Of a DNA stretch of 64,000 nucleotides, positions 38,912 to 60,627 are shown piece after piece. A program made the translations under genes and the position numbers. The notes beneath the pieces were generated by a model. The model searched no databases and had not been told where the DNA came from. It worked only from the letters and a program-made list of their open reading frames with translations. Source of the DNA: Candidatus Omnitrophota bacterium (GTDB taxonomy: Bacteria; Ratteibacteria; UBA8468; B48-G9; DTJG01); contig JAMWCD010000006.1 of assembly GCA_023818965.1 (NCBI GenBank), positions 205,475 through 269,474 on the forward strand, given 5' to 3'. The stretch's first letter is position 1, and every line of letters starts with the position of its first letter.

Positions 38912-39219
38912 AAAAATATAGAATCAATATACTCGGAAGAAACTGTACAATTGCCACTGACAGGGATGAGGTGTTTATGAGGAAAATTGAATCAGAAATT
39001 AATGAAAAACTTCAACTGCTCAGGTCTTCAATGCCGCACGCGGATTATCTTGATTTATGCATTGTATACTTGTTTTTGCTTTCTGAAAAAATAGATATTC
39101 TTCAAAATACTATAGAAAAGATGAAAAAGTCCTCTGAACAGGCAAAAAAAATACTTTCTTCTGTTCAGCAGGAAATTATCAAGCAGTTGACAAATTCGGA
39201 TAGTCATAATAGAATATAA
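38908..39219 (+). CDS. zapA: ZapA-like cell-division protein
   Basis: 103 aa. Start (KYRINILGRNCTIATDRDEVFMRKIESEINEKL) and length fit ZapA. It is in the conserved pheST-zapA position. Confidence 0.6.
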   Translation: MKKYRINILGRNCTIATDRDEVFMRKIESEINEKLQLLRSSMPHADYLDLCIVYLFLLSEKIDILQNTIEKMKKSSEQAKKILSSVQQEIIKQLTNSDSHNRI

Positions 39220-39405: not shown

Positions 39406-41157
39406 ATGAAAATAGGCAAGCAAAGGCGACTTGTTTTTGATTTTGGGACATACCATATTCGTGCTATTGAAATCGCGCCAGGTAGAAATGCCAAAAAGTT
39501 CACAATTAACTACTACCAGCAATATGATACCCCACCATTTGCATATGATGCGAGAATTCCTGTTCTCAGGACAGAAGGGAATGAATTTATAAAATCACTT
39601 GGTGTCAAAAGGGCAGCAGTTTCTCTTCCTGGCAGGGGCATTCTTATCAGAGCCATTACTGTACCAAAGGTTCCTCTCGGAAAATTGAGGGACATTCTTA
39701 AATTTGAAATCCAGCAGCAGATTCCATTTCCGATTGAGGTTGTTGCCTGGTCATATCAAATTATTTCTGAATCAGATAAAAGTTTTCAGGTTTTGTTGTG
39801 TGCTGCAAAAAAAGACCTTGTTAATGATTTCATTGCTCATCTCTCACCATTTGCACTAACAATTGAAACCCTTGATACGGATTTCTTCGCCATTTACAAT
39901 CTTTTCCGGATATCACCTTTTTATAAGTCAGATGAGTGTCAGGCAATTCTTGATATTGGTGCTCAAAGTGCAAACCTCATTATAAATCACCAGGACAGAA
40001 TCTTAATGAGGTCATTAACTACAACAGGTGACAGTATTTCGTCCACACTGGCAGAATCAAAGAAAATTGAATTTACTGAAGCAGAAAAAATAAAAATTGA
40101 ACAGGGTATGAAATCATCTGAAATATCCTCACTTGTGGACTCCCTTAATACAGAACTGCAGAATTCAATTGACTACTGGCGCTTTACATTAAAAGGTCCT
40201 GAATTAAACAGATTTTTTATTTGTGGTGGTACTTCAAAAATGATTGGTTTAAAAGAATATCTTGAACAGAAACTCAGGGTTCCTGTGGTTTATCTTGATC
40301 CACTTATGTTCTGTGATGTTGACCCTGAATATCAGGAATATCTTGCCGATAAAGGTCCTGAAATTGCTACTGCCTGTGGTATTGCATTAAGGACAATTAA
40401 ACTTAACCCAATTGAAATTGATATGTTGCCTGTTGAGATTATCAGAATGAGAGAATTTGCTGAAAACAGGCCTTATATATTTTTATCCACAATAATGGCA
40501 GTGTTGCTCACATTGACACCACTGTTTTTCTTGAGAATAGAAAAAACCGGTTATGAGAACTATAAAAAAGAACTTGAGACATCCCTGCAGGAATATGAAA
40601 AGTTTAAACCACAGGTCGAAGCCCTTCAGAAAAGTATTAATGATGTGAAAGGCAAGATTGGAGTTGTTCAGGACTTATTTGAAAAAAAAGCATTATGGCT
40701 TGCAAGAATCATTGAAATTGGCAGTAATCTACCAAGCAGTAGAATTTACCTGAACAATATTTATCCTTCAGGAACTCAGGTTGCTCAGGCTGCTCCTGCA
40801 CCGGCTCCTCAACCGGGACAGCCACCCGGACCTCCTGGTCCTGGAGCAGGTACACCACCTCCACCAGGAGCACCTGGTACTGCAGAGCCACCACCTGCTC
40901 CGGTAGCAGCTCCACAGCCGGCTCCACAACCATCAGCGCAAACAGGGGCACCTTCAACATTACCTGAAAAGATAGATGTACTGACCCTTGAAGGTGAAGC
41001 AATTGCAACCGATATTAGAAGTGCTTTTTCTGATTTGAAATTTTTTGTTCAAAGACTTTCAAGTTTGCCATTTTTTTCTGAGGTTGTTATAAACTCATGT
41101 GAACTTGACAGGGAAACAGGTAAACTGAAGTTTCTTCTAACTGCAAAGATAAAATGA
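39406..41157 (+). CDS. type IV pilus assembly PilM-PilN fusion protein
   Basis: 583 aa. Residues 1 to about 340 form an actin-like PilM ATPase fold (VFDFGTYHIRAIEI...FICGGTSKMIGL). After that come a TM helix (IFLSTIMAVLLTLTPLFFL), a coiled coil, a Pro-rich linker (APAPAPQPGQPPGPPGP...), and a PilN-like periplasmic domain. Confidence 0.75.
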   Translation: MKIGKQRRLVFDFGTYHIRAIEIAPGRNAKKFTINYYQQYDTPPFAYDARIPVLRTEGNEFIKSLGVKRAAVSLPGRGILIRAITVPKVPLGKLRDILKFEIQQQIPFPIEVVAWSYQIISESDKSFQVLLCAAKKDLVNDFIAHLSPFALTIETLDTDFFAIYNLFRISPFYKSDECQAILDIGAQSANLIINHQDRILMRSLTTTGDSISSTLAESKKIEFTEAEKIKIEQGMKSSEISSLVDSLNTELQNSIDYWRFTLKGPELNRFFICGGTSKMIGLKEYLEQKLRVPVVYLDPLMFCDVDPEYQEYLADKGPEIATACGIALRTIKLNPIEIDMLPVEIIRMREFAENRPYIFLSTIMAVLLTLTPLFFLRIEKTGYENYKKELETSLQEYEKFKPQVEALQKSINDVKGKIGVVQDLFEKKALWLARIIEIGSNLPSSRIYLNNIYPSGTQVAQAAPAPAPQPGQPPGPPGPGAGTPPPPGAPGTAEPPPAPVAAPQPAPQPSAQTGAPSTLPEKIDVLTLEGEAIATDIRSAFSDLKFFVQRLSSLPFFSEVVINSCELDRETGKLKFLLTAKIK

Positions 41158-42077
41158 AAAAAATACTGAGTTTTTTAAAAAAGAATCTTGTTTTTGTTTT
41201 CCTTGTGATTGTTCTTGGGCTACTGGGTTTTGGGTTTAATCTTATAAGAAAGACGCAGCAGGAACTTAAGAAGATGGAAGAAGAGATAAAGGCGAAACAT
41301 GATGAAATAAGAAAGTATGAAACTCAGAAAGAACTGGCACCATCACCAGAACTTGTCAATAAATTGCAAAAACAATATACTGCGGTTGCAGAACAGTTTA
41401 ACTCTCTGTTAAACCGTTTTTCCACAACCTATCCAGCAGTACCTGAGTTTAAGGTTTTCCCGAATGTTGAATTTAAGGAATTTCTTTTTGAGACAGGAGA
41501 CCAGTTAAAAAAGAAAGCCAAAAAGAATAATGTAATTATACCCTCATCCTTTGGATTTCAGGAGACAGGTTTTCCATCACCTGACCAGATACCATTATTT
41601 TCGTTACAGATTACTGTAATCAAGCATATTCTTGACCTGCTTATTGATTCAGGTATCAGTGTTGTTAATTCGGTTGTCCCTGGTATTCCATCAACGGTTG
41701 CTTTTTATAAAATCCTTCCTCTTGATGTATCAATTACAGGAACAAGCATTGAAATTATCAGGTTTTTAAGATACCTTAACAATCCTTCATCATTCTTCAC
41801 ACTTGAAAGTTTTGCTGTGACAAAGAAGGACACAGGTTTATTTCAGGGGAATTTTAAAATCAATGCTGTGATGATTGAAAAAGCAGCCGCAGTTGTTACT
41901 TCTGAAATACCAAAAGGGACACAGCCTTCTGCACAGGGAGCACCAGGAAGTCCTTCCGGGCAGCCACAGGGAGTACCAGGAAGTCCTCCTGGAGTTCCCC
42001 AGCAGCCACAGAAAGTACCAGGACACCCTGCTGGTGTTCCCGGGCAGCCACAAGCACCACCTAATCCTGTTAAATAG
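41154..42077 (+). CDS. PilO-like inner-membrane pilus assembly protein
   Basis: 307 aa. N-terminal TM helix, coiled coil, periplasmic alpha/beta domain, and a Pro/Gln-rich tail. Lies in the PilO position, translationally coupled to pilMN. Confidence 0.55.
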   Translation: MKKILSFLKKNLVFVFLVIVLGLLGFGFNLIRKTQQELKKMEEEIKAKHDEIRKYETQKELAPSPELVNKLQKQYTAVAEQFNSLLNRFSTTYPAVPEFKVFPNVEFKEFLFETGDQLKKKAKKNNVIIPSSFGFQETGFPSPDQIPLFSLQITVIKHILDLLIDSGISVVNSVVPGIPSTVAFYKILPLDVSITGTSIEIIRFLRYLNNPSSFFTLESFAVTKKDTGLFQGNFKINAVMIEKAAAVVTSEIPKGTQPSAQGAPGSPSGQPQGVPGSPPGVPQQPQKVPGHPAGVPGQPQAPPNPVK

Positions 42078-42085
42078 GGATACTT

Positions 42086-44695
42086 ATGCAAAAAGATTTT
42101 ATTTCAAAGTGGAAGAATGCGGATAGAAAAGGTAGAAAGAAAATTCTGTGTGATTTTATTGCAGCAAAAAGAAGACAAAAAACAAATGTTTCAGATACAA
42201 GAAAAAAAATCTCATTACAGAATAAATCTGCGAGAAAACCTGTTTTGTCCTGTCTACCGAAGATTCCTGAAATTAAAAGACATGCCCTTGCATTTTGCTT
42301 TTCCTCATCCTCAGATTCACCGACTGGAGCAAGAGATGATAACATTCAGGATTCAGGCGGTGAAGACCAGCCACCAAAGTCGCCTGAAGAACCTTCAAGA
42401 AAATCAAATATGAATGTCGATAAAGGTCCTGAAATTAAAAAAGACAAAGCCCGCCAGGATAAAAAGCAATTACTGATTAGATTTATTGAAGAAAAGAAAA
42501 GGGAAAAAGAAATTGCACAGAAGCAGCGACATGCAGAGAAAGAGGCGAGGAAGAAGTTAGCAGAGGAAGCCAGGAGGCAGGCGCAGGAGAAACTGGCGAT
42601 AGATGCAGAGGCGAGGCGGCAGGCGAAGCAATTGCGTCGGCAGGAGTTATTGAAGGCAAAGATAGAGAGAGAGATAAAGGCGAAAGCAGAGAGGCAGGCA
42701 AAGATAGAGGCGAAGCAGAAGGAGAAGGAGGCGATAGAGAAGAGCCGTCAGGTTGAGCTAGAGGAGAGGAAGAGATTAGTTGAAGAGGCATTGAAATTAA
42801 GGAAGCAGAAGAAGGAATTGCTTGTAGCATACCTTAATGGAATAAGAAGCAAGAGGGAGATAGAGCAGAAGCAACGACTTGCAGAGAAAGAGGCGAGGAA
42901 GAAGTTAGCAGAGGAAGCCAGGAGGCAGGCGCAGGAGAAACTGGCGATAGATGCAGAGGCGAGGCGGCAGGCGAAGCAATTGCGTCGGCAGGAGTTATTG
43001 AAGGCAAAGATAGAGAGAGAGATAAAGGCGAAAGCAGAGAGGCAGGCAAAGATAGAGGCGAAGCAGAAGGAGAAGGAGGCGATAGAGAAGAGCCGTCAGG
43101 TTGAGCTAGAGGAGAGGAAGAGATTAGTTGAAGAGGCATTGAAATTAAGGAAGCAGAAGAAGGAATTGCTTGTAGCATACCTTAATGGAATAAGAAGCAA
43201 GAGGGAGATAGAGCAGAAGCAACGACTTGCAGAGAAAGAGGCGAGGAAGAAGTTAGCAGAGGAAGCCAGGAGGCAGGCGCAGGAGAAACTGGCGATAGAT
43301 GCAGAGGCGAGGCGGCAGGCGAAGCAATTGCGTCGGCAGGAGTTATTGAAGGCAAAGATAGAGAGAGAGATAAAGGCGAAGGCAGAGAGGCAGGCAAAGA
43401 TAGAGGCGAAGAAAATTTCTCCGAAAGTAAAGCCACCAGATATCAGACCAGAAAAAAGAAAAAAATTACTTTCCTTTATCAATGATCTGAAAGCAAAATA
43501 TCAGCAGGAAGTCATAAGACAGAAGATTGCAAAAGATGCCTTGAGGAAGCAAAAAGAAATTGCGGTTCTTGCATTAAAACAGGAAAGGCAGGCAAAAGCA
43601 ATTCAGGCAGCCGAATTCAGGGCACGGAAAAAACAAATTGAACTCCAGAAAAAAGAACTTCTCAAGGCAGAATTACTTCTTGCTGCAAAAAGAAAAGCAG
43701 AAGCAAAGGCAGTTGAGAAATCACGCAAAGAATATGAAAAACAGATTAAGGATTTTTCATCAAAAATTACTGGTGCTGTTTCAAATGTAAGCAAGTTGAC
43801 TGGGGCTGCTCTTACATCAGCAATTTCTTCTGTAACTCCATTTGTTAAGAAAGCCCAAAGTATTAAGGTCCCTGCTGCTGAAAAATTTGCAAAACCTGAG
43901 ATTGTTCCTGCAGAAGTTCCTGCAAAAGCAATACCTGCAAAAGCAGAAAAGGCAAAAAAGTACAGAGAACCAGTAAAGATTGGACCACTGTTGAGAAAGA
44001 ATGCATTCAGAATTCTTTTCTTGCTTTTACTTTTGATGTGGCTTGGCGAAATTTTGTTTTATTCACTGAGATGGCGACCGCCAAGGGAAAAGTTTGAGGA
44101 AATGTTTGGTTCTGAAGAAGCAAAATCCAGTAAAACAGGTTCTACTGAAATAACAGAGGCAGAAACAAAAATAGCAGAATATAAAATTCCTTCCATTAAC
44201 ATTGAAGGGAAAAGAGACCCATTTTCAAGTGGATTGTTGACAATGGAATTGATGAAAAAACCGAAACCAACAGAAATTGTAAAGGCATATCAACCCGAGA
44301 TTATTACAATTTCAAGAGCACCATCAATTGTTTCCTCCAGTGTTCAAAAACCTATAAGAGAAAAGGCAGAAAAGATTACACCGATTCTGAAACCAGAGAA
44401 ACCCGAACCAGCCACTGCAACATTGTCTGAGGCAACAACAACAAAGATACTTCCACCTGCTCCTGTTTCAAAACCTGAAGTTTCGCCATTGATTGTTCCA
44501 CAGATTGAGTGTAATCTTATCTACAGGGGTAGTTTGATTATGGAAGGGATTGAATATATTTTCCTTGAAGGCAAACAGAGAACATACAGGGTAACAGTTG
44601 GTGATGTTGTAGAAGGTTTCAGGATTCTGAAAAAAGAAAAGGGAGTGCTCACATTATCAAAGGAAGGAGTTATAATTGAAATTCCTGCTGAATAA
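42086..44695 (+). CDS. 869-aa bitopic protein: long E/K/R-rich helical N-terminal region containing tandem repeats, one TM helix, a Pro-rich linker, and a C-terminal PilP/GspC-HR-like beta domain
   Basis: No signal peptide. About 640 aa of KEKE-type charged helix. TM at FRILFLLLLLMWLGEILFYSL. The C-terminus (ECNLIYRGSLIMEGIEYIFLEGKQRTYRVTVGDVVEGFRILKKEKGVLTLSKEG) resembles the PilP / GspC homology-region fold. Sits in the pilP position between pilO and pilQ. Confidence 0.5.
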   Translation: MQKDFISKWKNADRKGRKKILCDFIAAKRRQKTNVSDTRKKISLQNKSARKPVLSCLPKIPEIKRHALAFCFSSSSDSPTGARDDNIQDSGGEDQPPKSPEEPSRKSNMNVDKGPEIKKDKARQDKKQLLIRFIEEKKREKEIAQKQRHAEKEARKKLAEEARRQAQEKLAIDAEARRQAKQLRRQELLKAKIEREIKAKAERQAKIEAKQKEKEAIEKSRQVELEERKRLVEEALKLRKQKKELLVAYLNGIRSKREIEQKQRLAEKEARKKLAEEARRQAQEKLAIDAEARRQAKQLRRQELLKAKIEREIKAKAERQAKIEAKQKEKEAIEKSRQVELEERKRLVEEALKLRKQKKELLVAYLNGIRSKREIEQKQRLAEKEARKKLAEEARRQAQEKLAIDAEARRQAKQLRRQELLKAKIEREIKAKAERQAKIEAKKISPKVKPPDIRPEKRKKLLSFINDLKAKYQQEVIRQKIAKDALRKQKEIAVLALKQERQAKAIQAAEFRARKKQIELQKKELLKAELLLAAKRKAEAKAVEKSRKEYEKQIKDFSSKITGAVSNVSKLTGAALTSAISSVTPFVKKAQSIKVPAAEKFAKPEIVPAEVPAKAIPAKAEKAKKYREPVKIGPLLRKNAFRILFLLLLLMWLGEILFYSLRWRPPREKFEEMFGSEEAKSSKTGSTEITEAETKIAEYKIPSINIEGKRDPFSSGLLTMELMKKPKPTEIVKAYQPEIITISRAPSIVSSSVQKPIREKAEKITPILKPEKPEPATATLSEATTTKILPPAPVSKPEVSPLIVPQIECNLIYRGSLIMEGIEYIFLEGKQRTYRVTVGDVVEGFRILKKEKGVLTLSKEGVIIEIPAE
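42500..43408 (+). repeat. 2.7 copies of a 348-bp (116-codon) in-frame tandem repeat; copies 2 and 3 are essentially identical at the nucleotide level
   Basis: Repeat unit (Q)KQRLAEKEARKKLAEEARRQAQEKLAIDAEARRQAKQLRRQELLKAKIEREIKAKAERQAKIEAKQKEKEAIEKSRQVELEERKRLVEEALKLRKQKKELLVAYLNGIRSKREIE. The mirrored antisense ORFs at 42483, 42834 and 43182 confirm the 348-bp period. The coding strand is purine-rich and GC-rich relative to its surroundings. Confidence 0.9.
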
Positions 44696-44739
44696 CTTGA
44701 CTTATGTTCAATTATCACGGTATAATACATGGAGGGAAA

Positions 44740-46635
44740 ATGAGAGGAATTAAAAAGACAAAAATCGCATTATTATGTTTTTCGCTGGCACTCTGGGGAT
44801 ATGTCTTACCTTCAATGGCTCAGACAACAAAAACATTTGCCACTTCCACAACAGAACTTGACCTTCTTTATAGCGATGCCATCAAAAGTTATTATCAAAA
44901 GGACTATGCAAGAGCAATAGCGCTTTTTAAACAGATCCAGGGTCTTTCTCCTGAATATAAAAAATCGCAGATCAACCATTATGTCAGAACTGCTGAAAGT
45001 CGTCTTGGCAAGACAACTCCTGTTACTGTTTTCAAGGTTCCTGGACAGCCGACAAAAGAAATAGAAATTAATAAAGAAGGTGAACTTGAAGCAATGGCTG
45101 AAGAAGCACAGAAAGTGCTGCTAAATACAGCCAGTTATCTGGATTCAGTAGAAAAAGAAGGCAAACTAACTGAGTTTCAACTTGTTGGTCCGAAATCATC
45201 CTTGAAAATGGCAAAAGAAGCATATGAAAACAGTCAATACACAGAGGCGATACGACTTGCCAATAAAGCAAGATTCCAGATTGACCAGTTTATTACTCAG
45301 AAAAAACCAGGTATCGTTCTTGGAAAATATGCTGACTATCCTGTAACACTGAATCTTACAGATGCAGATTTAAGCCAGACATTAAAATTGATTTATGATT
45401 TAACAGGTGCCAATATTGTATTGATGCAGGGTATTACCGGAAGGGTTTCAATCAATGTCAAGGACCTTCCCCTTCAGAGGGTTCTTGATCTTATATGTGA
45501 GGCGAACAATCTGAAGTATGTTGAGGACAATGGTGTAATAAAAATAATGACAGCAGAAGAATTTAATAAGTCCGCTGCAGCAGTGAAAGCGCGGTTGCGC
45601 AGGGTTTTCCAGGTTTACTATGGAGATGCCTTCAGTATAATGAAGGCACTAAAAGAAACATATCCAACTCAGACGATTGTTCATGATCCAAGAACAAATT
45701 CAATCATTGTTGAGGCATCTGATGAAGAAACTGCCGCAAGAATTGGAGAGATTGTTTCTTCACTTGATACACCGATTTCTCAGGTACTGCTTGAGGCAAA
45801 ACTTGTTGAAATTGTACTTTCTGATGAGAATACATTTGGTATTGACTGGCTTGTAAGTTCACGACTTGTTTCTGCTCTTGGTTCAGGCGGAACTCTAACA
45901 GGACCAAGATTCGGGGATAATCCGAATTTTACTCCTGGAGTATCCTCTTCCTTACCTCAGGGAACATTTTCTTTTGGAATAACAAATTATGATGTAAATG
46001 CCTTGATTCAGGCATTAAGTGCAAAGGGACAGGTGAAACTATTGCAGGCACCAAAGATTATGTGTCTCAATGGTACAACAGCAGTGATCAGTGTACAGAC
46101 AAACGTACCATATTTGATACCCCAATCAACTGTATCACAGCAGCAGCAAACCATTACGACAACCGCAACATTCAATGTTTTTGAAGACCAGGTTGGAACA
46201 GAGTTTACTGTTACTCCTATTATTCAGAGAAACAGGAGTATCTTTTTGAACCTTAACATCTATGATGCACGTTTGATAGAAATTAAACGATTGACAGCAA
46301 TCGCAGGAGGACAGCAATATTCAACAGACCAGCCCGTGATTTCAAACAGGGAAACAAACCAGAGTATTGTTGTTTATGATGGTCAAACCTTGATTATCGG
46401 TGGTATGATTCAGGATAGGAAAGAACTTAAAACTACAGGTGTTCCTTTTCTCCAGCATATACCACTATTGGGATATCTTTTTAAGAAACCAAGTTACAGC
46501 AGTGCAAAAAGTGAGATGTTACTGTTTTTGACACCAAGGGTAGTAAGTACATATGAGGATGCTAATGCTGTCAGTAAGCCAGATGTACAAAAACTGGACA
46601 AAAAGATTGATGCCGGTATTCTTGAAAAGTACTGA
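44740..46635 (+). CDS. pilQ: PilQ-type secretin
   Basis: Signal peptide, TPR-like helical segment, secretin N domain (VTLNLTDADLSQTLKLI...), secretin core (VLLEAKLVEIVLSDENTFGIDW), and the C-terminal signature GVPFLQHIPLLGYLFKKPSY...LLFLTPRVV. Confidence 0.85.
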   Translation: MRGIKKTKIALLCFSLALWGYVLPSMAQTTKTFATSTTELDLLYSDAIKSYYQKDYARAIALFKQIQGLSPEYKKSQINHYVRTAESRLGKTTPVTVFKVPGQPTKEIEINKEGELEAMAEEAQKVLLNTASYLDSVEKEGKLTEFQLVGPKSSLKMAKEAYENSQYTEAIRLANKARFQIDQFITQKKPGIVLGKYADYPVTLNLTDADLSQTLKLIYDLTGANIVLMQGITGRVSINVKDLPLQRVLDLICEANNLKYVEDNGVIKIMTAEEFNKSAAAVKARLRRVFQVYYGDAFSIMKALKETYPTQTIVHDPRTNSIIVEASDEETAARIGEIVSSLDTPISQVLLEAKLVEIVLSDENTFGIDWLVSSRLVSALGSGGTLTGPRFGDNPNFTPGVSSSLPQGTFSFGITNYDVNALIQALSAKGQVKLLQAPKIMCLNGTTAVISVQTNVPYLIPQSTVSQQQQTITTTATFNVFEDQVGTEFTVTPIIQRNRSIFLNLNIYDARLIEIKRLTAIAGGQQYSTDQPVISNRETNQSIVVYDGQTLIIGGMIQDRKELKTTGVPFLQHIPLLGYLFKKPSYSSAKSEMLLFLTPRVVSTYEDANAVSKPDVQKLDKKIDAGILEKY

Positions 46636-46707
46636 TAAACTGATCACTGACAAAAAACGTCTAAAAATAGAAAGCCGTGGAAGCAAAAATACGGCAGGAG
46701 GTGTGAT

Positions 46708-47514
46708 ATGAAAAAAATTGCTGCATTGGTTCTGATTCTGGTACTTGTGTTTTTCTGTATTGATTTGTTTGCTCAAACAACATCAACAAGGACTTCAACT
46801 TCAACCGGTTCATCAAGAACGAGTTCCCGGACATCAAGGACAGGGACAGGTAGTACTTCGGGTTACGATACTACTGGTAGTGCGGACTTTGTTATTTCAG
46901 CTATTGCAGGCATGTTAAGACATCGTGACAAAGAAGTGAGAATACAGGCATTGCAGGCACTTGTTGGTGGTATGACACTTGGAACTACAACAACATCCTC
47001 GTCTTCAACAACCAGTACAGGGATTGGAGATATTTTTGGAATGAGGGGAGGAGGAACCACAACTTCCTCTTCCAGTTCGACTTCTGTCCAGGGACTTGGA
47101 ACTACTGTACTTATTCCTGAATTTTTTACAATGCTCTCTGACCCAGACCCTGAAATCAGGGACCTTGTTTCAATTGCCCTTGACCAGATCTTTGGTACAG
47201 ATGCAAGTTTAATCAGGTTTCTTCATGACCCGGATCCTGTTGTGAGAAAATATGCAATGAGATTATTTGTAATCAGAACCAGGGAAGATAGCCAGTATCG
47301 AACAACAACATCATCATCTTCAGGAACAACATATACAAGAAGTGCCAATGATATTTTGATTATGAGAATTCTTTTGAATATGATGAAAGACCCTGACCCT
47401 GATGTGAAAAAGGTTGCAACTGATGCTCTTGAAAAATTCATTTCTGACCTTGAAAAAAGATACGAAAGTACTATGGGAACAGGTCAACCAGGTGTTCAGC
47501 AACCACTGAGATAA
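46708..47514 (+). CDS. small secreted protein with Ser/Thr-rich low-complexity linkers and three HEAT/PBS-lyase-like repeats
   Basis: Signal peptide. Poly-S/T/R tracts (TSTRTSTSTGSSRTSSRTSRTGTGSTSG, TTTTSSSSTTSTG, TTTSSSSSTS). Three DPDP-x-[VI][RK]..A..AL motifs (DPDPEIRDLVSIALDQI, DPDPVVRKYAMRLF, DPDPDVKKVATDALEKF). Confidence 0.5.
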   Translation: MKKIAALVLILVLVFFCIDLFAQTTSTRTSTSTGSSRTSSRTSRTGTGSTSGYDTTGSADFVISAIAGMLRHRDKEVRIQALQALVGGMTLGTTTTSSSSTTSTGIGDIFGMRGGGTTTSSSSSTSVQGLGTTVLIPEFFTMLSDPDPEIRDLVSIALDQIFGTDASLIRFLHDPDPVVRKYAMRLFVIRTREDSQYRTTTSSSSGTTYTRSANDILIMRILLNMMKDPDPDVKKVATDALEKFISDLEKRYESTMGTGQPGVQQPLR

Positions 47515-47535
47515 TTTAATAATTTTGGGAGAACA

Positions 47536-49095
47536 ATGCTATCAAAAAAATTTGTACTGTGTCTTGTATTGATGTTTTCAGTTTGTTCTTTTGCACAGAA
47601 GCAATTTACATTGAATTTTAATAATGTTGATATACTGACATTTATTAAACTTGTCAGTGAGTTCACAGGTGAAAACTATGTCATTGACCCTGCTGTGAGA
47701 GGAAGTGTAACAATCATTTCTCAAAAACCTGTTGAAAGTGAAAAATTATACCAGGTTTTTCAGGCAGTATTGAATCTTTATGGATTCACAGTTGTGAAAA
47801 GGGATAGTGTTTCATTTATCATTCCTTCGACAGATGGCAGAGCAAGGTCTCCAGTTGTTAACTATGGAGATATTGGCGATGACAAACTTGATATACATAT
47901 CACCCAGATTATTCCAATGAAATATTATACGGCTGACACTGTGACTCAGATTTTAACACCATACATTTCAAAGGCAGGACAGATTTCTTTTGATAGTAGA
48001 AGTAACACAATCTTTATTTCTGACTTTGGCTCAAATATAAAAAAAATTCTTGAAATAGTCAGGGCAATTGACCAGCCAAGTCCTCCAGGAAAAGAATCAT
48101 TAAGGGTCTTTAAACTTCAAAATGCTAATGCTGAGGATGTTGCAAAAACACTTAGTGATATTCTTGCCAAAAAAAGGGTTCAACCAGCAAGACCAGGTCA
48201 GGTTATTGTTCAACCTGCAGTCGTTTCTGTGAAATCGACAAATTCTTTGATTGTTTATGCTGAAGCAGATGATTTCACCAATATCGAAGGGCTTATTAAA
48301 GAACTTGATGTAATGACAAATCAGGTACTCATAGAAGCATTGATTGCTGAAGTTTCTTACAAGAGAGAACAGGACATAGGGATACAGTGGGCAACAGTTC
48401 AGGATTTTCACCATGATAAGTATTCTGGTTCTGCACAAACAAAGTTCGGGGTTGAAAACGTTACAAATGGCTTACTTATCGGTTTTACAAATGCCCAGAG
48501 TTTAATTGATTATGTAAAAATAGCACTATCAGGAAAAGATACACAGTTTAAGATTTTAAGTACTCCCCAGATTATGACAGCAGATAATACAGAGGCAACA
48601 ATCAATGTAAGTGAAAATACACCTTATTTGAAAGAAACAAGGTTTACAACAGGAACCGGTGGTACTGGTACTGATACAATAAGAAGTTATGATTACAAGG
48701 ATGTCGGAATTATTCTGAAAATAACACCACAAATCAGTCAGGATAGATATGTTCGTTTGAAATTGCATCAGGAAGTCACAAAGGTTATTACTGAAAACAC
48801 TGAAGGAGCATTAACAACAGCCAAACGTGAGGCAGATACCACACTGATTGTCCCGAACCATCAAACAGTTGTACTTGGAGGTCTAATTCGTGATGATAAT
48901 GAAAATACCATTAACAAAGTCCCTTTTCTTGGAGATATCCCTGGAATTGGAAAATTGTTCAGAAGGGAAACAAAAGGTAGTGTAAAAACGAATCTTTTGA
49001 TTTTTATCACGCCTCGTATTATTACGAATTTTGAAGAAGCAGAAAGAATAAAGCAAGAGAAGGAAAAAATTTTTAAAAATGAACAGAAAAATTAA
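47536..49095 (+). CDS. gspD: GspD-type secretin (type II secretion outer-membrane channel)
   Basis: Signal peptide, GspD N0 domain (FNNVDILTFIKLVSEFTGENYVIDPAVRGSVTIIS), N1-N3-like repeats, secretin core (VLIEALIAEVSY...GIQW), and the C-terminal VPFLGDIPGIGKLFRRE...LLIFITPRII. Confidence 0.85.
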   Translation: MLSKKFVLCLVLMFSVCSFAQKQFTLNFNNVDILTFIKLVSEFTGENYVIDPAVRGSVTIISQKPVESEKLYQVFQAVLNLYGFTVVKRDSVSFIIPSTDGRARSPVVNYGDIGDDKLDIHITQIIPMKYYTADTVTQILTPYISKAGQISFDSRSNTIFISDFGSNIKKILEIVRAIDQPSPPGKESLRVFKLQNANAEDVAKTLSDILAKKRVQPARPGQVIVQPAVVSVKSTNSLIVYAEADDFTNIEGLIKELDVMTNQVLIEALIAEVSYKREQDIGIQWATVQDFHHDKYSGSAQTKFGVENVTNGLLIGFTNAQSLIDYVKIALSGKDTQFKILSTPQIMTADNTEATINVSENTPYLKETRFTTGTGGTGTDTIRSYDYKDVGIILKITPQISQDRYVRLKLHQEVTKVITENTEGALTTAKREADTTLIVPNHQTVVLGGLIRDDNENTINKVPFLGDIPGIGKLFRRETKGSVKTNLLIFITPRIITNFEEAERIKQEKEKIFKNEQKN

Positions 49096-50620
49096 TCTTT
49101 CACTAACCAGTGAAGAAATTGAAAAACTTATTGACTCTGAATTGCTTCCAAAATTTCCATATTCTTTTCTTGAAAACTTTTCACTTTTACCATTAAGGGA
49201 TGCTCCTGGCAGGGTGTTATTTGCAACAAGCGACATTTCAAAAATTGATGCAGGAGAAATTGAACAATTTACAGGAAAAAAGGTTTCATTTGTGATTGTT
49301 GATAAACAGATTATTAGTGAACTTCTGAAAAAACATTATTACAATCCTGCATCATCCCAGAAAATCATTCAGGAATTAACACGTGATGAAGCAATGTTTG
49401 AAGAATCAATTCCAGAAGAACTTCCTTCACAAAATGGAGACCTTCTCGATCTTGCAAATCAAGCCCCTATTATACGACTTGTCAATCAGATTTTTTACAG
49501 GGCGATTTTGATGAGGGCAAGTGATATTCATCTTCAAAGTTTGGAAAACTATCTCAAGGTAAGATACAGGATTGATGGAATGCTTCATGATGTTCTCACA
49601 CTCCCTGCAAAATATCAACCTGCTGTGATTTCAAGGGTAAAAATCATTTCTGACCTTGATATTGCAGAAAAAAGAATTCCGCAGGATGGAAGAACAACAA
49701 TCAGAATTGATGATAGACAGATTGATGTGAGGGTATCAATTATTCCAACCTTTTTCGGAGAATCTGCAGTTTTGCGTTTACTTGACCAATCAACATATAA
49801 TTTTGGACTTAATGAACTCGGTTTTTCTGAAAATGATCTGGTGAGATTTGACAGGTTAATCCATTACGACCATGGAATAATACTTCTTACAGGTCCAACT
49901 GGTAGTGGAAAAACAACAACACTGTATGCGGCTCTTTCAAGGATTAATAATCCCCAGATTCATATTATTACGCTTGAAGACCCTGTTGAGTATCAACTTG
50001 ATGGAATTAACCAGATACAGGTTAATCCAAAGGTAGGACTTACATTTGCCAGTGGATTGCGTTCAATTTTGAGGCACGACCCTAATGTTATTATGGTTGG
50101 AGAAATACGAGACAGGGAAACAGCAGAAATGGCAATTCAGGCATCTCTTACAGGACATCTTGTTTTCAGTACCCTTCATACGAATGATTCGACAAGTTCC
50201 ATTACTCGTCTTCTTGATATGGGCATAGAGCCATATCTTATTGCTTCCTCTGTCATTGGAATTATTGCCCAGCGACTGGTTCGCCTTAATTGTGTTAAGT
50301 GTTCTGAACCTGTTTTGTATCCTGACGAACTTTTAAGGGAAATTGGACTTGACCCTTCTGCTGATGGATATAATTTTAAAAAGGGAAAAGGTTGCGAAGT
50401 TTGTTTAAATACGGGCTATCACAAAAGAACAGGTATTTTTGAATTTCTTGAAATTGATGACGAAATTCGTAATCTTATTATGAAGCAGGTTTCAGCAGGA
50501 GAAATCAGAAGATATGCCCTCAGCAAAGGATTGAGAACCTTACGGATGGATGGAGCAAGAAAGGTTGCTGAAGGGCTTACAACAATCAGTGAAGTCCTCA
50601 GAGTAACCCAGGAAACCTGA
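49079..50620 (+). CDS. gspE: GspE/PilB-family secretion ATPase
   Basis: 513 aa. Walker A (LLTGPTGSGKTTTLYA), Asp box, Walker B, His box, and a tetracysteine zinc motif (CVKCSEP...CEVCLNTGY). Confidence 0.9.
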   Translation: MNRKINLSLTSEEIEKLIDSELLPKFPYSFLENFSLLPLRDAPGRVLFATSDISKIDAGEIEQFTGKKVSFVIVDKQIISELLKKHYYNPASSQKIIQELTRDEAMFEESIPEELPSQNGDLLDLANQAPIIRLVNQIFYRAILMRASDIHLQSLENYLKVRYRIDGMLHDVLTLPAKYQPAVISRVKIISDLDIAEKRIPQDGRTTIRIDDRQIDVRVSIIPTFFGESAVLRLLDQSTYNFGLNELGFSENDLVRFDRLIHYDHGIILLTGPTGSGKTTTLYAALSRINNPQIHIITLEDPVEYQLDGINQIQVNPKVGLTFASGLRSILRHDPNVIMVGEIRDRETAEMAIQASLTGHLVFSTLHTNDSTSSITRLLDMGIEPYLIASSVIGIIAQRLVRLNCVKCSEPVLYPDELLREIGLDPSADGYNFKKGKGCEVCLNTGYHKRTGIFEFLEIDDEIRNLIMKQVSAGEIRRYALSKGLRTLRMDGARKVAEGLTTISEVLRVTQET

Positions 50621-50621
50621 A

Positions 50622-51818
50622 ATGCCGGTATTTTCCTACGATGGCTTTGATAGGCAGGGGAAACATGTTTCTGGCAGAATTGAAGCCGATAATATTTCCA
50701 TTGCCAGAGCCATGGTTAAGGAAAATGGTATCTTTATAAAAAAAATTGTTCCTTTCAATCAGCCCAAACGTTTTCGCACTGAAAAGGTTAAAATGGATGA
50801 TTTTGCGCTTTCAATAAGAGAACTTGCTACATTGCTTAATTCAGGATTAACCCTTGATGAAAGTGTATCAGGAATTATTGCCCAGATGAAGGAAGGGAAA
50901 CTTAAAGATGTTTATACAGATATCCAGAAGCAAATCAGGGAAGGTAAAAGTTTTTCAAAGGCAGCATCACAGTATCCTGAACTTTTTTCAGATATCTCTC
51001 TTTCAATGATAAAGTCAGGAGAGGCAAGTGGAACACTTGGACTGGTCCTTGAGCACATTGCAAAATTTTTGGAAGAATCAATTTATTTCAAAAATAAGGT
51101 TCTTGGTATTATGACCTATCCAATTATGATGGCTATTGTTGGCACATTTGTCTTGATTTTTGTCTTTACTTTTGTTACACCAACAATCACAAGAATTTTT
51201 TCAGAAATTTCCCTTAAACTGCCTTTACCGACACTTATTCTGATAAAGTTTTCATCTTTTTTAAGGCACTACATCCTTGCAGTAATTGCATTTATACTGA
51301 TTGCAGTATATCTTATTGCAAGATACATTCATTCAGAAAAAGGAAAAGCAAGTTTCGCAAGATTTAGAAGGAAAATTCCATACCTTGGTGAGATTTTTTT
51401 CAAAAGTGAGATTGCAAACTTTACTGGTACTTTAGGAACACTTCTTCAAGGAGGTGTTGAAATTCTTACCAGTTTCAACATTGCACAGGAGGTTGTATCG
51501 AATCCTGATTTAAGACAGCAGATTGACAGGGCAAGAGACCTGATTTCACGTGGACAAAGTGTTTCATCTGCACTTCGTAAAACAACAATGTTTCCTTACA
51601 CTGTCATTCAACTGATTTCAGCAGGGGAAAAAAGTGGAACAATGCCACAGATGTTGATGAAAATCTCTGTAAATTTCAAAGAGGAAGTTTCTCAGAAGGC
51701 AACAAGATTCGTAACAATTCTTGAACCATTTATGATTCTTTTTATGGCTGTAATTGTGGGTTTTGTAGTTATTGGAATCATGCTGCCGATTTTTCAAATC
51801 AGTCAGAGTATAAGATGA
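50622..51818 (+). CDS. gspF: GspF/PilC-family inner-membrane platform protein
   Basis: 398 aa. Two repeated GspF domains separated by TM helices, plus the conserved start PxFxYxGxDxxG. Confidence 0.9.
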   Translation: MPVFSYDGFDRQGKHVSGRIEADNISIARAMVKENGIFIKKIVPFNQPKRFRTEKVKMDDFALSIRELATLLNSGLTLDESVSGIIAQMKEGKLKDVYTDIQKQIREGKSFSKAASQYPELFSDISLSMIKSGEASGTLGLVLEHIAKFLEESIYFKNKVLGIMTYPIMMAIVGTFVLIFVFTFVTPTITRIFSEISLKLPLPTLILIKFSSFLRHYILAVIAFILIAVYLIARYIHSEKGKASFARFRRKIPYLGEIFFKSEIANFTGTLGTLLQGGVEILTSFNIAQEVVSNPDLRQQIDRARDLISRGQSVSSALRKTTMFPYTVIQLISAGEKSGTMPQMLMKISVNFKEEVSQKATRFVTILEPFMILFMAVIVGFVVIGIMLPIFQISQSIR

Positions 51819-51893
51819 AAAGTTTATTTAAACCATTTTTTAATTTCCCATTTTACAAAGGTGGATAAAGGAGGATTTTAACAGGGAGAACAT

Positions 51894-52349
51894 ATGAGAA
51901 ACAGAAAAGGATTTACCTTCATAGAATTGATGGCTGTTGTAATAATTCTTGGAATTCTGGCAATGTATGTAATGCCAAAGATATTTGGAAGGGTTGACGA
52001 AGCAAAGGTAACTGCAGCAAAGATTCAGATAAAAAGCTTTGAACAGGCACTAAAACTTTTTTATCTGGATAATAATTTCTATCCTTCTACAGAACAGGGT
52101 CTTGAGGCTCTTGTAGAAAAACCAACAACAGGAAGGATTCCTGAAAAATGGCGAGAAGGTGGATATCTTGAAAAAAAGTCAATTCCTCTGGACCCATGGG
52201 GACATCCTTATGTATATTTATCCCCGGGAAGAAATGGTGAGGACTATGAAATTATTTCATACGGGAAAGACGGTCAGGAAGGTGGAACAGGATATGATGC
52301 AGACATCTCAAGCAGTGAAATTGAACCCACAGAAAAACCATCTCAATAA
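51894..52349 (+). CDS. gspG: major pseudopilin GspG
   Basis: RKGFTFIELMAVVIILGILA prepilin leader, and the GspG-specific body ...EQGLEALVEKPT...LDPWGHPYVYLSPGRNGEDYEIISYGKDGQEGGTGYDADI. Confidence 0.9.
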   Translation: MRNRKGFTFIELMAVVIILGILAMYVMPKIFGRVDEAKVTAAKIQIKSFEQALKLFYLDNNFYPSTEQGLEALVEKPTTGRIPEKWREGGYLEKKSIPLDPWGHPYVYLSPGRNGEDYEIISYGKDGQEGGTGYDADISSSEIEPTEKPSQ

Positions 52350-52808
52350 AGGGTTTACGCTTTTTGAACTGATGGTAGTAATCCTCATTATTAGTTTTTT
52401 TTTGTCAACATGGCTCGCTACTCAACATTTTCTTTTGAAGAAAAAACCAAAATTCCTGAGATTGAGGAAATCATCAATCAAGCAACCAGCACATCTTTAA
52501 GTTCTGGAAAGCCATATATTTTATTTTTCAACATTGATGAACAATCGTATGTCCTGGTTGAAAGAGACCAGACAATTTTAAAAAATGTTCCTGATGGGGT
52601 TTCTTATAACAAACTATCAGGAGATTTTAAAATCATTCGTATCACAGTAAATGGCTATAACTATGAATCAGGTTGTCCTGGAATTACATTTTTTGCTGAT
52701 GGAAGTCGGGAATATGCAGAGATTGAATTAGAAAGTATTGAAGGAACAAGGTGGACTGTTGTTTTGAATCCTTACTCATCAGTTGCCGAAATTACTCAAT
52801 CATCGTAA
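52294..52808 (+). pseudogene. gspH: GspH-like minor pseudopilin interrupted by a frameshift in a T10 homopolymer (52393-52402)
   Basis: The prepilin leader NKGFTLFELMVVILIISFF is in the frame of ORF 52159..52500. The C-terminal body (ORF 52410..52808) is in another frame. Inserting one T in the T10 run joins them as ...ISFFFVNMARYSTFSF... Confidence 0.5.
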
Positions 52809-53191
52809 TGAAAAGAAAAACTGGTTTTACGCTTCTTGAAGCAATGGTGGCAGTTGGAATATTTGCAATACTTGGTATTGTTTGTCTTGAAAATTATCTT
52901 CTTAATGCAGGTATTGCCCAGAAGATTATTGATGACCAGACATGTTTGATTCTTGCCAGGCAAAAGGAATTTGAGTACTTACAGAATCCTGAAAATATAA
53001 GTGAAACAGGTGATTTTGGAGATATTGACCCAGAAGCGAAATATCAAATAGAGACAAGTGATATATCAGTAAGTGAAACTGTGACTGTTGACAGTGAAAT
53101 TACTCTCAACTTTACTGTTGTGAGGATGATTGTGAAAAAAAGAAGTTCAATGGTTTCTTATCCTTTTTTAATAAAACCAGCGACAGAATAA
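52808..53191 (+). CDS. gspI: GspI-like minor pseudopilin
   Basis: MKRKTGFTLLEAMVAVGIFAILGI leader. About 127 aa, the typical size for GspI. Confidence 0.65.
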   Translation: MKRKTGFTLLEAMVAVGIFAILGIVCLENYLLNAGIAQKIIDDQTCLILARQKEFEYLQNPENISETGDFGDIDPEAKYQIETSDISVSETVTVDSEITLNFTVVRMIVKKRSSMVSYPFLIKPATE

Positions 53192-53212
53192 AAACAGCAA
53201 GGATTTTTTGAA

Positions 53213-53764
53213 ATGATGAATTACACAATGGAAAAAAAGAATGCAGGTTTTACATTGATGGAGATGCTTGTAGTTATTGTGATTGGTTTTATTATTGTAC
53301 TTCTTGTTTATCAGACGATGCAATCAACAATTCGTGTTTCTGCGGTAATACAGGAAAAAATTACTGATATGCAAAGAGTGAATTTTTTTCTCACATCATT
53401 TTCATCCCGTTTATTATGTATTGTTCCTGACAGCAAGAACAATAGTTTTACCAGCAGTAAAGTTTCCATTGAACTGGACGAATATAATTCAAGAAAAATT
53501 ATTACCTATGAAATTGAACCAGATGAAACAGGAAAATTTGGCCTTACTGTTGGTGAAAAGGATATTCTATTAAATACAGAGTGTTCATATCCTGGATTGA
53601 GTGGTCTTGATAGCATAGAATTTTCATTTTTTGATGGTGATTCGTGGTTGACTGATTGGGATAAAGATACATTACCACAGGGAATAGCCATTACATTTGT
53701 GAGAAATGGTTCTAAAATATTTTTTCCTGTGAAACTTGACATTCAAAGTGTGCAGGAAACATAA
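53213..53764 (+). CDS. gspJ: GspJ-like minor pseudopilin
   Basis: KKNAGFTLMEMLVVIVIGFIIVLL leader and a GspJ-like C-terminus (...WLTDWDKDTLPQGIAITF). Confidence 0.65.
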   Translation: MMNYTMEKKNAGFTLMEMLVVIVIGFIIVLLVYQTMQSTIRVSAVIQEKITDMQRVNFFLTSFSSRLLCIVPDSKNNSFTSSKVSIELDEYNSRKIITYEIEPDETGKFGLTVGEKDILLNTECSYPGLSGLDSIEFSFFDGDSWLTDWDKDTLPQGIAITFVRNGSKIFFPVKLDIQSVQET

Positions 53765-53785
53765 TGATGAAATTCTCATTTTCCT

Positions 53786-53940
53786 CTTTTCCACCTTCCC
53801 TTCAGGAAGGAGGGAATGCAAGGGGAGGTTGAAATCTCCCAAAAATCCCCCTCTGTCCCCCTTTGAAAAAGGGGGAAGAGAAGGGGGATTTTAGAAAAGG
53901 GGGCAATAGAGGGAAAAATTGAATGGAAGGGGAATTTACA
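53786..53940. repeat. cluster A of G/C-rich hairpin repeats (C5T3-loop-A3G5 family) in the gspJ-gspK intergenic spacer
   Basis: ccttcaggaagg palindrome, tccccctttgaaaaaggggga hairpin, and repeated gggggatttt / aagggggaa motifs. Strongly G/C-biased compared with the flanking AT-rich DNA. Confidence 0.6.
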
Positions 53941-53998
53941 AGAGGGTAAAAAATATGGTTAAGTTTGGCAGAACCAAAAAGAATATGGAGTTAAACAG

Positions 53999-54898
53999 AT
54001 GAAAAATGGTTTCATACTCATTACCACGCTGGCATTTCTTGCAATTCTTGCTGCAAATGCTGTGCTACTATCGGATTTTATTAGATTTCGTGCTGAACTT
54101 CAACACAATCAGAATGCACAGTTTCTTGTTGACAAAATTGCAAGGGCAGGAATCAGTGCAGGTGAAACAATTTTACTTCTGGATAAAAACTCATATGACT
54201 GGTTTACTGATATATGGGTGAAGCCAAAACATCTTGAGTTTCCTGAAGGAAGTGTTGATATTACCATTGAGCCACTTGATACAAAATTCAATGTTAACAG
54301 TATTATTGGTCGTGATAAATCAATAAACACTCAGGCAAAAAACATTTTCAGTAATCTTTTGTCTGTTATGGGTTTTCCTTCATCCCTTCTTGATACACTG
54401 CTTGACTGGCTTGATAGCGATGATTTTCCAGGAGTTTTCGGAGCAGAATCAGAATATTATGCAACCCTTGTACCACCGTATAAACCTGCCAATGGACCTT
54501 TGAATGATACATTTGAACTTGCGTATATCAAAGGGTTTACACCTGAAATTTTAATCCGTAGCGGAGAAAGACCAGGGCTTATTGATTTGCTTACAATCTT
54601 TTCTGATAATAAAATAAATGTTAATATGGCTGACCCGATAATATTACAGGCACTCGGGTATTCATCTGCTTCTGTTGAGAAGATTTTGAATGAAAGAGAA
54701 CTCAGACCATTAACAATGAATATTCTTATGAGGATTGACAGACGGACGACAGGATCTCTTACAAGGGTAATAAAATTTTCAAGCAGTTTTTTTAAGATCA
54801 CTGCCCATGCAACATGTGCTGGAATTTCATCTACGCAATCACTTGTTGTTCAGAGGGCAAATAACAAAATCACAAGATTGAGATGGGAAAGAAATTGA
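53999..54898 (+). CDS. gspK: GspK-like minor pseudopilin
   Basis: 299 aa. N-terminal hydrophobic prepilin-like segment (GFILITTLAFLAILAANAVLL) and a GspK-like body (KFNVNSI...ADPIILQALG). Confidence 0.7.
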   Translation: MKNGFILITTLAFLAILAANAVLLSDFIRFRAELQHNQNAQFLVDKIARAGISAGETILLLDKNSYDWFTDIWVKPKHLEFPEGSVDITIEPLDTKFNVNSIIGRDKSINTQAKNIFSNLLSVMGFPSSLLDTLLDWLDSDDFPGVFGAESEYYATLVPPYKPANGPLNDTFELAYIKGFTPEILIRSGERPGLIDLLTIFSDNKINVNMADPIILQALGYSSASVEKILNERELRPLTMNILMRIDRRTTGSLTRVIKFSSSFFKITAHATCAGISSTQSLVVQRANNKITRLRWERN

Positions 54899-59086: not shown

Positions 59087-59143
59087 ACTCTTGACAATGG
59101 AGAAAAAAACCATTAACATTAATAATGGAAGGAGGTGATAAAG

Positions 59144-59803: not shown

Positions 59804-59856
59804 GAATTTGGTTGACTATGAATACAAAAAAATTTTGTAAAAGGAGGTGAAAAAGA

Positions 59857-60573: not shown

Positions 60574-60627
60574 TGGATTTATGGAGAAAAAATGAAAAAA
60601 AAATAAAATGAAAGGAGGTGAAAAAAG

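Follow-up and report, generated by a model that had tools for sequence, protein, structure and literature searches.

A PilQ-like secretin module directly precedes a type II secretion operon in a Ratteibacteria genome

Introduction

Work on secretins and the proteins that align them usually deals with a single system, and how an inner-membrane motor is matched to an outer-membrane channel is an open question both for type II secretion and for type IV pili. What does it mean, then, when a genome encodes two secretins side by side? The question is raised by a stretch of 64,000 nucleotides from a Candidatus Omnitrophota bacterium of the Ratteibacteria lineage (positions 205,475 to 269,474 of contig JAMWCD010000006.1, assembly GCA_023818965.1; hereafter the 64-kb window, whose own numbering we use). 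In this window, an earlier note made from the sequence had seen two secretin genes 900 bp apart, and both are indeed present on the + strand, at 44740–46635 (Sec1, 631 amino acids [aa]) and 47536–49095 (Sec2, 519 aa).

Here we ask what the two secretins are, why they lie so close together and whether they are likely to work in one machine. We found that they belong to different classes. The locus is best read as two adjacent modules: module A (39406–47514) encodes a PilMNOPQ-type alignment cage and a HEAT-repeat protein, and module B (47536–56632) comprises gspD to gspM. The secretin genes come to lie 900 bp apart because a pilus-type alignment and secretin module directly precedes a complete type II secretion operon.

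Results

Sec2 is a true GspD. It scores 432.2 bits against the GspD equivalog TIGR02517, above the cutoff of 351.35, and its best solved relative in sequence comparisons with the PDB is XcpQ (238 bits), followed by other GspDs (198–211 bits) and by PilQ (125 bits); the N-terminal crystal chains of XcpQ align to Sec2 residues 21–227. The protein carries a signal peptide, a Pfam GspD N0 domain at residues 26–90 (E 7e-25), two Secretin_N stretches and a secretin core at residues 334–496 that covers profile positions 4–168 of 169 (E 3.1e-50). It has one N domain fewer than the 650-aa GspDs and ends 23 aa past the core, which leaves no S-domain. Its gene stands within a gsp operon with GspE, F, G–K, L and M, and its place in the secretin tree described below is also that of a GspD.

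And what is Sec1? Its open reading frame (ORF) spans 44704–46635, and the likely start is the ATG at 44740, with GGAGGG four bases earlier (44731–44736). The 631-aa product is identical to a database protein from a metagenome-assembled genome labelled Candidatus Omnitrophica, and relatives of the protein are labelled Candidatus Ratteibacteria; according to a preprint, BV-BRC lists genomes of the Ratteibacteria under the name Omnitrophica. It consists of a signal peptide, TPR-like helices, an N0/STN domain (residues 216–283), one N domain (Secretin_N, 300–360) and a secretin core (437–614) that covers profile positions 1–168 of 169 (E 1.6e-40). On domain annotation both secretin cores are thus intact, in line with the canonical C-terminal signatures that the earlier note had claimed for both, and E-values far beyond chance in both proteins confirm that the observation is real.

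The domain descriptions that came with that claim stand only in part. Sec1 had been given a TPR-like segment and a single N domain. The TPR segment is weak by sequence (TPR families, E 0.025–0.06) and is backed by an AlphaFold2 (AF2) model (predicted local distance difference test [pLDDT] 68), in which residues 37–88 and 114–186 form two three-helix bundles, and by TPR_1/TPR_2 matches on record for some Sec1 orthologues; the N0/STN domain, however, had been overlooked, and the same model places N0 at 201–285, N1 at 288–342 and the core at 348–602. The GspD-type N0 reported for Sec2 is present at the E-value given above, but Sec1 carries an N0 too, so this domain does not tell the two secretins apart. 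They differ in N-domain number, in family scores and in gene context.

None of the curated NCBIfam cutoffs is reached by Sec1. Its best-scoring family is the PilQ model TIGR02515, just ahead of GspD TIGR02517 (201 bits, cutoff 351), and the Amuc_1098 family NF042912 gives 75.4 bits, under a cutoff of 750, with only the last ~70 residues aligning. Among solved proteins, the best relative by sequence is PilQ of Myxococcus xanthus (3jc8, 122 bits), in which residues 475–894 match Sec1 residues 207–616 in collinear order from N0 to the C-terminus; PilQ of Pseudomonas aeruginosa (6ve2) aligns to residues 209–616, and the top Foldseek match is the competence-pilus PilQ of Vibrio cholerae (6w6m, E 7e-19). 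The gene context is of the PilQ type as well, with PilM_2, PilN/O-like domains and a weakly supported PilP-like gene upstream. Sec1 is PilQ-like in architecture and forms a distinct deep branch outside every curated family.

How old is the separation between the two secretins? Over the last N domain and the core they are 29% identical (BLASTP E 2e-29). From 54 secretin cores we computed a midpoint-rooted neighbour-joining tree (294 columns, 200 bootstraps) that took in the Sec1 and Sec2 families, GspD-annotated proteins and PilQs of Myxococcus, Pseudomonas, Geobacter-type, Acidobacteriota and other loci. Matches to Sec1 supplied the references, and type III secretion, Tad and phage outgroups were left out; the PilQs among the references came from scans of genomes and metagenomes with an alignment of the Sec1 family, which returned mostly ordinary PilQs and at least five family loci each. 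The Sec1 and Sec2 families were each monophyletic in 200/200 bootstraps. Sec1 and all PilQs separated from Sec2 and the main GspDs in 190/200, and the Sec2 family grouped with the GspD references in 123/200. Core identity was 52% and 60% within the families and 28% between them, and the Sec1 branch is deep, its core being 27% identical to PilQs and 28% to Sec2. The two families were sister in only 3/200 bootstraps, and the pair is therefore not a recent tandem duplication. The two classes named in the earlier note are upheld, since Sec2 passes the GspD equivalog cutoff and Sec1 is nearest PilQ by PDB sequence and fold and lies on the PilQ side of the tree. These comparisons support the view that Sec1 and Sec2 are ancient paralogues of different classes.

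What surrounds the two secretin genes? The earlier note had overlooked the PilM/N/O/P-like genes upstream and the HEAT gene, and with these included the picture shifts from two secretins in a type II secretion operon to two adjacent modules. Module A consists of a PilM-PilN fusion, a PilO-like protein, an 869-aa PilP/GspC-like protein, Sec1 and the HEAT protein, and the gene order of module B is gspD-E-F-G-H-I-J-K-L-M. All of these genes lie on the + strand.

In the PilM-PilN fusion (39406–41157, 583 aa), an actin-like PilM domain in the cytoplasm is followed by a transmembrane segment, by a linker rich in Pro and by a PilN/O-like domain in the periplasm, an overall layout shared with GspL; a T2SSL match is on record for some orthologues of the fusion. 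The Pfam match to PilM_2 has an E-value of 1.5e-29 and the score against TIGR01175 PilM is 130 (cutoff 133). The best NCBIfam model is Amuc_1101_fam (NF045709), with 220.5 bits against a cutoff of 650. In hhalign, the C-terminal 250 aa match the PilN/PilO profile with 96.7% probability (E 3.3e-10). The next protein, PilO-like and bitopic (41154–42077, 307 aa), is Amuc_1100-like and ends in a Pro/Gln-rich tail. Its best family is Amuc_1100_fam (NF038287; E 6.6e-13, 48.8 bits, under the cutoff of 180), PF28028 Amuc_1100 is on record for its orthologues, and it matches the PilN/PilO profile with 96.6% probability (hhalign, E 6.4e-10), together with a weak Pfam PilO match (E 0.043). Low-complexity linkers rich in Pro, Gln, Gly and Ala are encoded at 40750–41000 (about aa 455–525 of the fusion) and at 41960–42052 (the C-terminus of the PilO-like protein, which holds a 42-bp repeat in 2.2 copies); such linkers are unusual for PilN/PilO proteins.

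The third gene (42086–44695), directly upstream of Sec1, encodes the 869-aa bitopic protein (P869), with a ~620-aa cytoplasmic region rich in Lys, Glu and Arg, one transmembrane segment, an invariant KRDPFS and a conserved ~65-aa C-terminal beta domain. Neither P869 nor its isolated C-terminal domain, taken from five orthologues, gave a usable Pfam or NCBIfam match. Its assignment draws on its position, its RDPF motif and a weak PilP profile match. In 39/44 PilP ORFs that precede reference PilQs, the motif [RK][DNS]PF stands 100–140 aa from the C-terminus, and in P869 RDPF stands at −160; against the PilP profile, hhalign gives P 2.4e-4 and 43% probability. The AF2 model of the C-terminal domain is all-beta, with low confidence (pLDDT 53), and had no significant Foldseek match. 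A protein search with the C-terminal 200 aa gave only 4 close fragments, and this shallow alignment accounts for the poor model. From these weak but concordant lines, we infer that the C-terminus may be a PilP/GspC-HR-like connector to the secretin N0.

The P869 gene also contains a 348-bp (116-aa) tandem repeat in 2.6 copies of 99% identity (42518–43411). The repeat encodes cytoplasmic sequence rich in Lys, Glu, Arg and Ala, probably a coiled coil, and is also behind a local GC/AT-skew anomaly and long spurious minus-strand ORFs. Orthologues of P869 range from 554 to 1022 aa.

The 900 bp between the secretins are occupied by the HEAT-repeat gene (46708–47514), whose 268-aa periplasmic product has a signal peptide, a Pfam HEAT match (E 3.5e-18) and Ser/Thr-rich linkers. 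The gene follows Sec1 in all informative relatives, including one, L002, that has no adjacent GspD, and our guess is that the protein is a secretin accessory. We also considered a lipoprotein pilotin, which the type-I signal peptides and the lack of a conserved Cys in the orthologues ruled out.

Do the two modules form one operon, as had been proposed? The + strand genes are packed tightly across 39.4–56.6 kb. The intergenic gaps are 44 nt before Sec1, 72 nt between Sec1 and the HEAT gene and 21 nt between the HEAT gene and Sec2, the others being small or negative, and a promoter/terminator scan found no terminator-like site between the genes. A single transcript for both modules is plausible on this layout. 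The same tight run, however, also takes in the housekeeping genes pheST, zapA and polA, the last directly after the GspM-like gene, so co-transcription would not imply shared function. The scan itself, made with a sigma-70-like consensus that may not be that of this phylum, is barely above chance and uninformative (67 promoter-like sites versus 49 expected from shuffled sequence, and 14 terminator-like sites versus 13). Near-consensus sigma-70-like sites were found at 44697–44726 (TTGACT-18 nt-TATAAT), within the 44-nt gap preceding Sec1, and at 39187–39215, ahead of the PilM-like gene. Both match 11/12 positions, and the first would start transcription inside the Sec1 Shine-Dalgarno region.

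Is the arrangement conserved? The order P869-Sec1-HEAT-GspD-GspE recurs in 12 distinct relatives (L001/L090, L003, L004, L007, L008, L010, L092, L093, L094, L170, L171 and L172), whose Sec1 identity ranges over 40–87% and GC content over 27–47%. Wherever relatives were examined, both secretins had their full length and a complete secretin domain. Relatives therefore keep both genes, and the adjacency is broken in one (L002). The best reading is that Sec1-GspD adjacency is an inherited gene order of the Ratteibacteria lineage. Around the locus, pheS-pheT-zapA and polA keep the same order in the relatives too; because these flanking housekeeping genes are equally syntenic, conserved adjacency alone proves no functional coupling.

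Two relatives bear directly on whether the modules depend on each other. In L002 (Sec1 identity 48%, GC 61.5%), the genes that come after P869, Sec1 and HEAT are unrelated ones, and no GspD was found within 10 kb; module A can thus stand apart from GspD. In L170, the most divergent relative (Sec1 identity 40%), a 259-aa protein encoded directly before GspD matches PDZ_2 (E 5.7e-8) and T2SSC (E 9.3e-6) and by its predicted HR and PDZ domains is a real GspC; there, the HEAT gene encodes only 122 aa and the Sec1 module keeps an HR-like protein of its own. Taken together, L002 and L170 indicate that the modules are separable and that each was self-sufficient. GspC has been lost from the main clade, where a longer HEAT protein now occupies the GspC position.

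Several of these loci and of the distant ones have features of their own. Near the L002 locus lie a second HEAT-like gene, a DUF1559 prepilin gene and IS21/Mu-type transposase genes. In L170 (113–5420), the P869-like protein (607 aa) carries the C-terminal HR-like domain twice in tandem. In L008 (16132–21866), GspD-GspE is followed by a nucleotidyltransferase, a phosphoribosyl pyrophosphate synthetase, an epimerase and a glycosyltransferase-like gene in place of gspF–M. In the single-secretin cluster L005 (8477–9926), an ExeA-like AAA ATPase and a GspB-like gene stand between a PilO-like gene and the secretin, which recalls the ExeAB secretin-assembly pair of Aeromonas. Within 10 kb of the distant long PilM relatives L087–L089 (Planctomycetota, Hydrogenedentes), no secretin was found. 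L020 (Verrucomicrobiia) proved to be an ordinary PilMNO locus with an AMIN-PilQ rather than one of the Amuc type.

Downstream of gspD, module B continues with GspE, the secretion ATPase (49079–50620), which overlaps the end of gspD by 17 nt, matches Pfam T2SSE (E 1e-135) and scores 614 against TIGR02533 (cutoff 630) and 553 as PilB, and with GspF, the inner-membrane platform protein (50622–51818; Pfam T2SSF E 2e-57; TIGR02120 356, cutoff 424). Neither has a paralogue in the window. GspG, the major pseudopilin (51894–52349), is above its cutoff of 88.85 with 166.5 bits against TIGR01710 (Pfam T2SSG E 2e-42). The GspH-like minor pseudopilin (52342–52808) is apparently frameshifted: the N_methyl motif lies in one frame and the C-terminal part, which resembles the GspH-position genes of relatives, in another, with the break at a run of nine T (52395–52403). 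An error of assembly, a pseudogene or phase variation by slipped strands could each explain this split; the GspH orthologue of L003 is also called without a prepilin N-terminus. There follow the minor pseudopilins GspI-like (52808–53191; N_methyl motif, position as in relatives) and GspJ-like (53213–53764; N_methyl, T2SSJ E 3e-5) and then GspK (53999–54898; Pfam T2SSK_1st E 4e-21). The last two proteins have weak matches below cutoff and positions that are conserved in relatives: a GspL-like assembly-platform protein (54883–56148; GspL_C E 1.4e-4, TIGR01709 E 1.4e-4) and a GspM-like protein (56135–56632; Pfam T2SSM E 2.4e-4). No prepilin peptidase, GspC or GspN was found at the locus.

Elsewhere, the window holds four DUF1559 prepilin-type genes, a hallmark of the PVC (Planctomycetes-Verrucomicrobia-Chlamydiae) group. 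The four, at 18017–18775 and 59135–61314, share a near-identical N-terminus, and one is flanked by a GntR/LacI-type regulator (16872–18014) and a 982-aa DUF4838 and CBM9 protein (18797–21745). The DUF1559 proteins are candidate filament subunits, or else proteins tied to carbohydrate use. Two neighbouring genes of 445 and 394 aa (25552–28070) each carry a phosphatidylserine decarboxylase domain.

Discussion

How might two such secretins work next to each other? The reading that we prefer, at a probability of roughly 55%, is that two paralogous modules build two separate homo-oligomeric channels and that the motor of module A is encoded elsewhere in the genome. Each secretin has an alignment pair of its own, PilMN and the PilO-like protein for Sec1 and GspL and GspM for Sec2. 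In module B, GspE and GspF would assemble a short GspG–K pseudopilus on an assembly platform of GspL and GspM, and a Sec2 homo-oligomer would be the outer-membrane exit for folded periplasmic proteins. In module A, the PilM-PilN fusion and the PilO-like protein would sit in the inner membrane as an alignment cage, and the C-terminal domain of P869 would dock on the Sec1 N0, tying Sec1 to the PilN/O-like pair. A putative homo-oligomeric ring of Sec1, perhaps with the HEAT-repeat protein as its accessory, would form the second outer-membrane channel and would most likely pass a second filament of prepilin-type proteins, either a pilus or a second pseudopilus with cargo. The ATPase and the platform protein of module A would be encoded elsewhere, like pilB, pilC and pilT in the model type IVa organisms.

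Alternatively, a single GspE/GspF motor and the GspG–K pseudopilins could serve both channels, a possibility that we consider distinctly less probable than two separate systems. In such a composite machine, the motor would be coupled to Sec1 through the cage of PilMN fusion, PilO-like protein and P869 and to GspD through GspL and GspM, an arrangement that we put forward only tentatively; P869 may stand in for the missing GspC at both N0 domains, and the two ports would serve different cargo, or a fibre on the one hand and soluble proteins on the other.

Several observations speak for this alternative, and some of them (i, ii, iv and v) also weigh against two separate systems: (i) the 64-kb window contains just one ATPase and one platform protein, and neither a second copy of either nor a PilT-like gene was found in it; (ii) neither in the window nor among the main-clade relatives did a search with the L170 GspC find a homologue, although L170, the deepest relative, has one, so that in the window's clade P869 is the only HR-like candidate for docking the canonical N0 of GspD; (iii) the PilM-PilN fusion is laid out like GspL, with T2SSL matches in some orthologues; (iv) in two loci of other candidate phyla (L005 and L028, the latter from Omnitrophota), PilMN/PilO-type proteins and an STN-type secretin stand in one cluster with GspE/F/G–K, so that a cage of the module A type can evidently be driven by a Gsp-type motor; (v) in L008, module A, the HEAT gene, GspD and GspE stay together though gspF–M are located away; (vi) Sec1 and GspD stay adjacent in relatives with as little as 40% Sec1 identity; and (vii) in P. 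aeruginosa, the secretin XqhA can substitute for XcpQ. Sec1 itself also fits an ordinary pilus secretin imperfectly, scoring 205.5 bits against the PilQ model TIGR02515, whose cutoff is 284.35, and having no Pfam match to an AMIN domain, with the helical TPR-like N-terminus in its place.

On the other side, module B is complete by itself from D to M, L002 has module A without an adjoining GspD or GspE, and the housekeeping neighbours are just as syntenic as the secretins. The lack of a second motor in 64 kb says little about the whole genome, and in the open-access literature we found no account of a motor that serves two alignment cages. In its fullest form, the composite would make the main Ratteibacteria clade the owner of a two-port type IV filament machine, with one GspE/GspF motor, two cages and P869 or the HEAT protein linking both after the loss of GspC; we regard this as a doubtful proposal.

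A third reading, in which Sec1 and Sec2 would share one channel as a hetero-oligomeric ring or as two stacked rings, was suggested in the earlier note and finds no support here. Only adjacency and likely co-transcription speak for it. The cores are ~28% identical, the N-termini differ (Sec1 has a TPR-like segment, N0 and a single N domain, Sec2 an N0 and two N domains), the alignment proteins are separate, L002 keeps Sec1 without GspD alongside, and all the solved secretin rings that were matched are homo-oligomers of one chain type, which makes such a channel very improbable. Least credible of all is the idea that a single secretin gene was recently duplicated in place and that one copy has since drifted or decayed: the genes do lie on the same strand 900 bp apart, but the families are almost never sisters (3/200), each is monophyletic and separated from the other by PilQ and GspD references, core identity is far higher within (52% and 60%) than between families (28%), and in none of the relatives examined is either gene truncated or its secretin domain incomplete.

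What would follow from either of the two leading readings? In one block, the Ratteibacteria hold a PilQ-like secretin with a PilM/N/O/P-like cage, a GspD with GspL and GspM, and one visible motor, and within the lineage the connector specific to type II secretion, GspC, occurs in the deepest branch but not in the rest. Should complete genomes prove to contain no other motor, nature would offer an example of one engine with two ports, and with it a direct test of what matches a motor to its secretin. Should there be a second motor, the locus would be an unusually tight juxtaposition of two ordinary systems. Even then, it would add divergent members to these families, namely a TPR-type PilQ, a giant bitopic PilP/GspC-like protein and a HEAT-repeat accessory, distantly related to the medically studied Amuc_1098–1102 cluster of Akkermansia. 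In a search of the open-access literature, we met no account of a PilQ-like secretin and a GspD that are conserved as a pair and encoded in one block with two sets of alignment proteins.

How does the locus compare with known systems? Module B has the D-E-F-G-H-I-J-K-L-M order of canonical type II secretion (Gsp/Xcp/Pul/Eps) and the GspD-type N0; the equivalog cutoffs are exceeded by GspD and GspG and approached by GspE and GspF. It departs from the canonical system in having no GspC, GspN or prepilin peptidase at the locus, in its short GspD (519 aa; two N domains follow N0, where the canonical protein has three, and the S-domain is missing) and in a GspL and a GspM that are only weakly recognisable.

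Module A recalls the Amuc_1098–Amuc_1102 cluster of Akkermansia muciniphila, whose Amuc_1101_fam and Amuc_1100_fam are the best families of its first two genes; Akkermansia and the organism of the window both belong to the PVC group. The Akkermansia secretin has a TPR/BamD-like N-terminus and a C-terminal secretin domain and is encoded in a five-gene cluster (PMC4960237, PMC5332112). The scores, however, lie far under the family cutoffs (220 versus 650, 49 versus 180 and 75 versus 750), and Amuc_1098 has 907 aa to the 631 of Sec1, so the module A proteins are distant relatives and not members of these families.

With the type IVa pilus of M. xanthus and P. aeruginosa, module A shares the gene order M, N, O, P-like, secretin. 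Before the secretin, the P869 gene encodes an RDPF motif and a putative small C-terminal beta domain, as in pilP; PilQ has N0, one N domain and the core, as in Sec1, which lies on the PilQ side of the tree. In contrast to the type IVa pilus, PilM and PilN are fused here, the small PilP lipoprotein is replaced by an 869-aa bitopic protein with a ~620-aa charged repeat region, Sec1 has a TPR-like N-terminus without AMIN and scores below the TIGR02515 cutoff, an extra HEAT-repeat gene is present, and no pilB, pilC, pilT or pilin gene is tied to module A within the window. In P. aeruginosa and M. xanthus, pilMNOPQ are normally unlinked from pilB/C/D, pilT and pilA.

The clusters of L005 and L028 resemble module A in their PilM-PilN fusion, PilO-like gene, small HR/PilP-like ORF and STN-type secretin, and in the tree their secretins lie on the Sec1 side. 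They have one secretin for GspE/F/G–K and no added GspD, GspL or GspM, whereas the Ratteibacteria carry both sets. A precedent for one Gsp-type inner-membrane machine with alternative secretins is found in P. aeruginosa, where the Xcp machine can work with the orphan secretin XqhA in place of XcpQ. The gene of XqhA, a GspD-type paralogue, lies elsewhere, and the protein has no alignment proteins of its own; Sec1, by comparison, is PilQ-like, adjacent to GspD and accompanied by its own PilM/N/O/P-like set.

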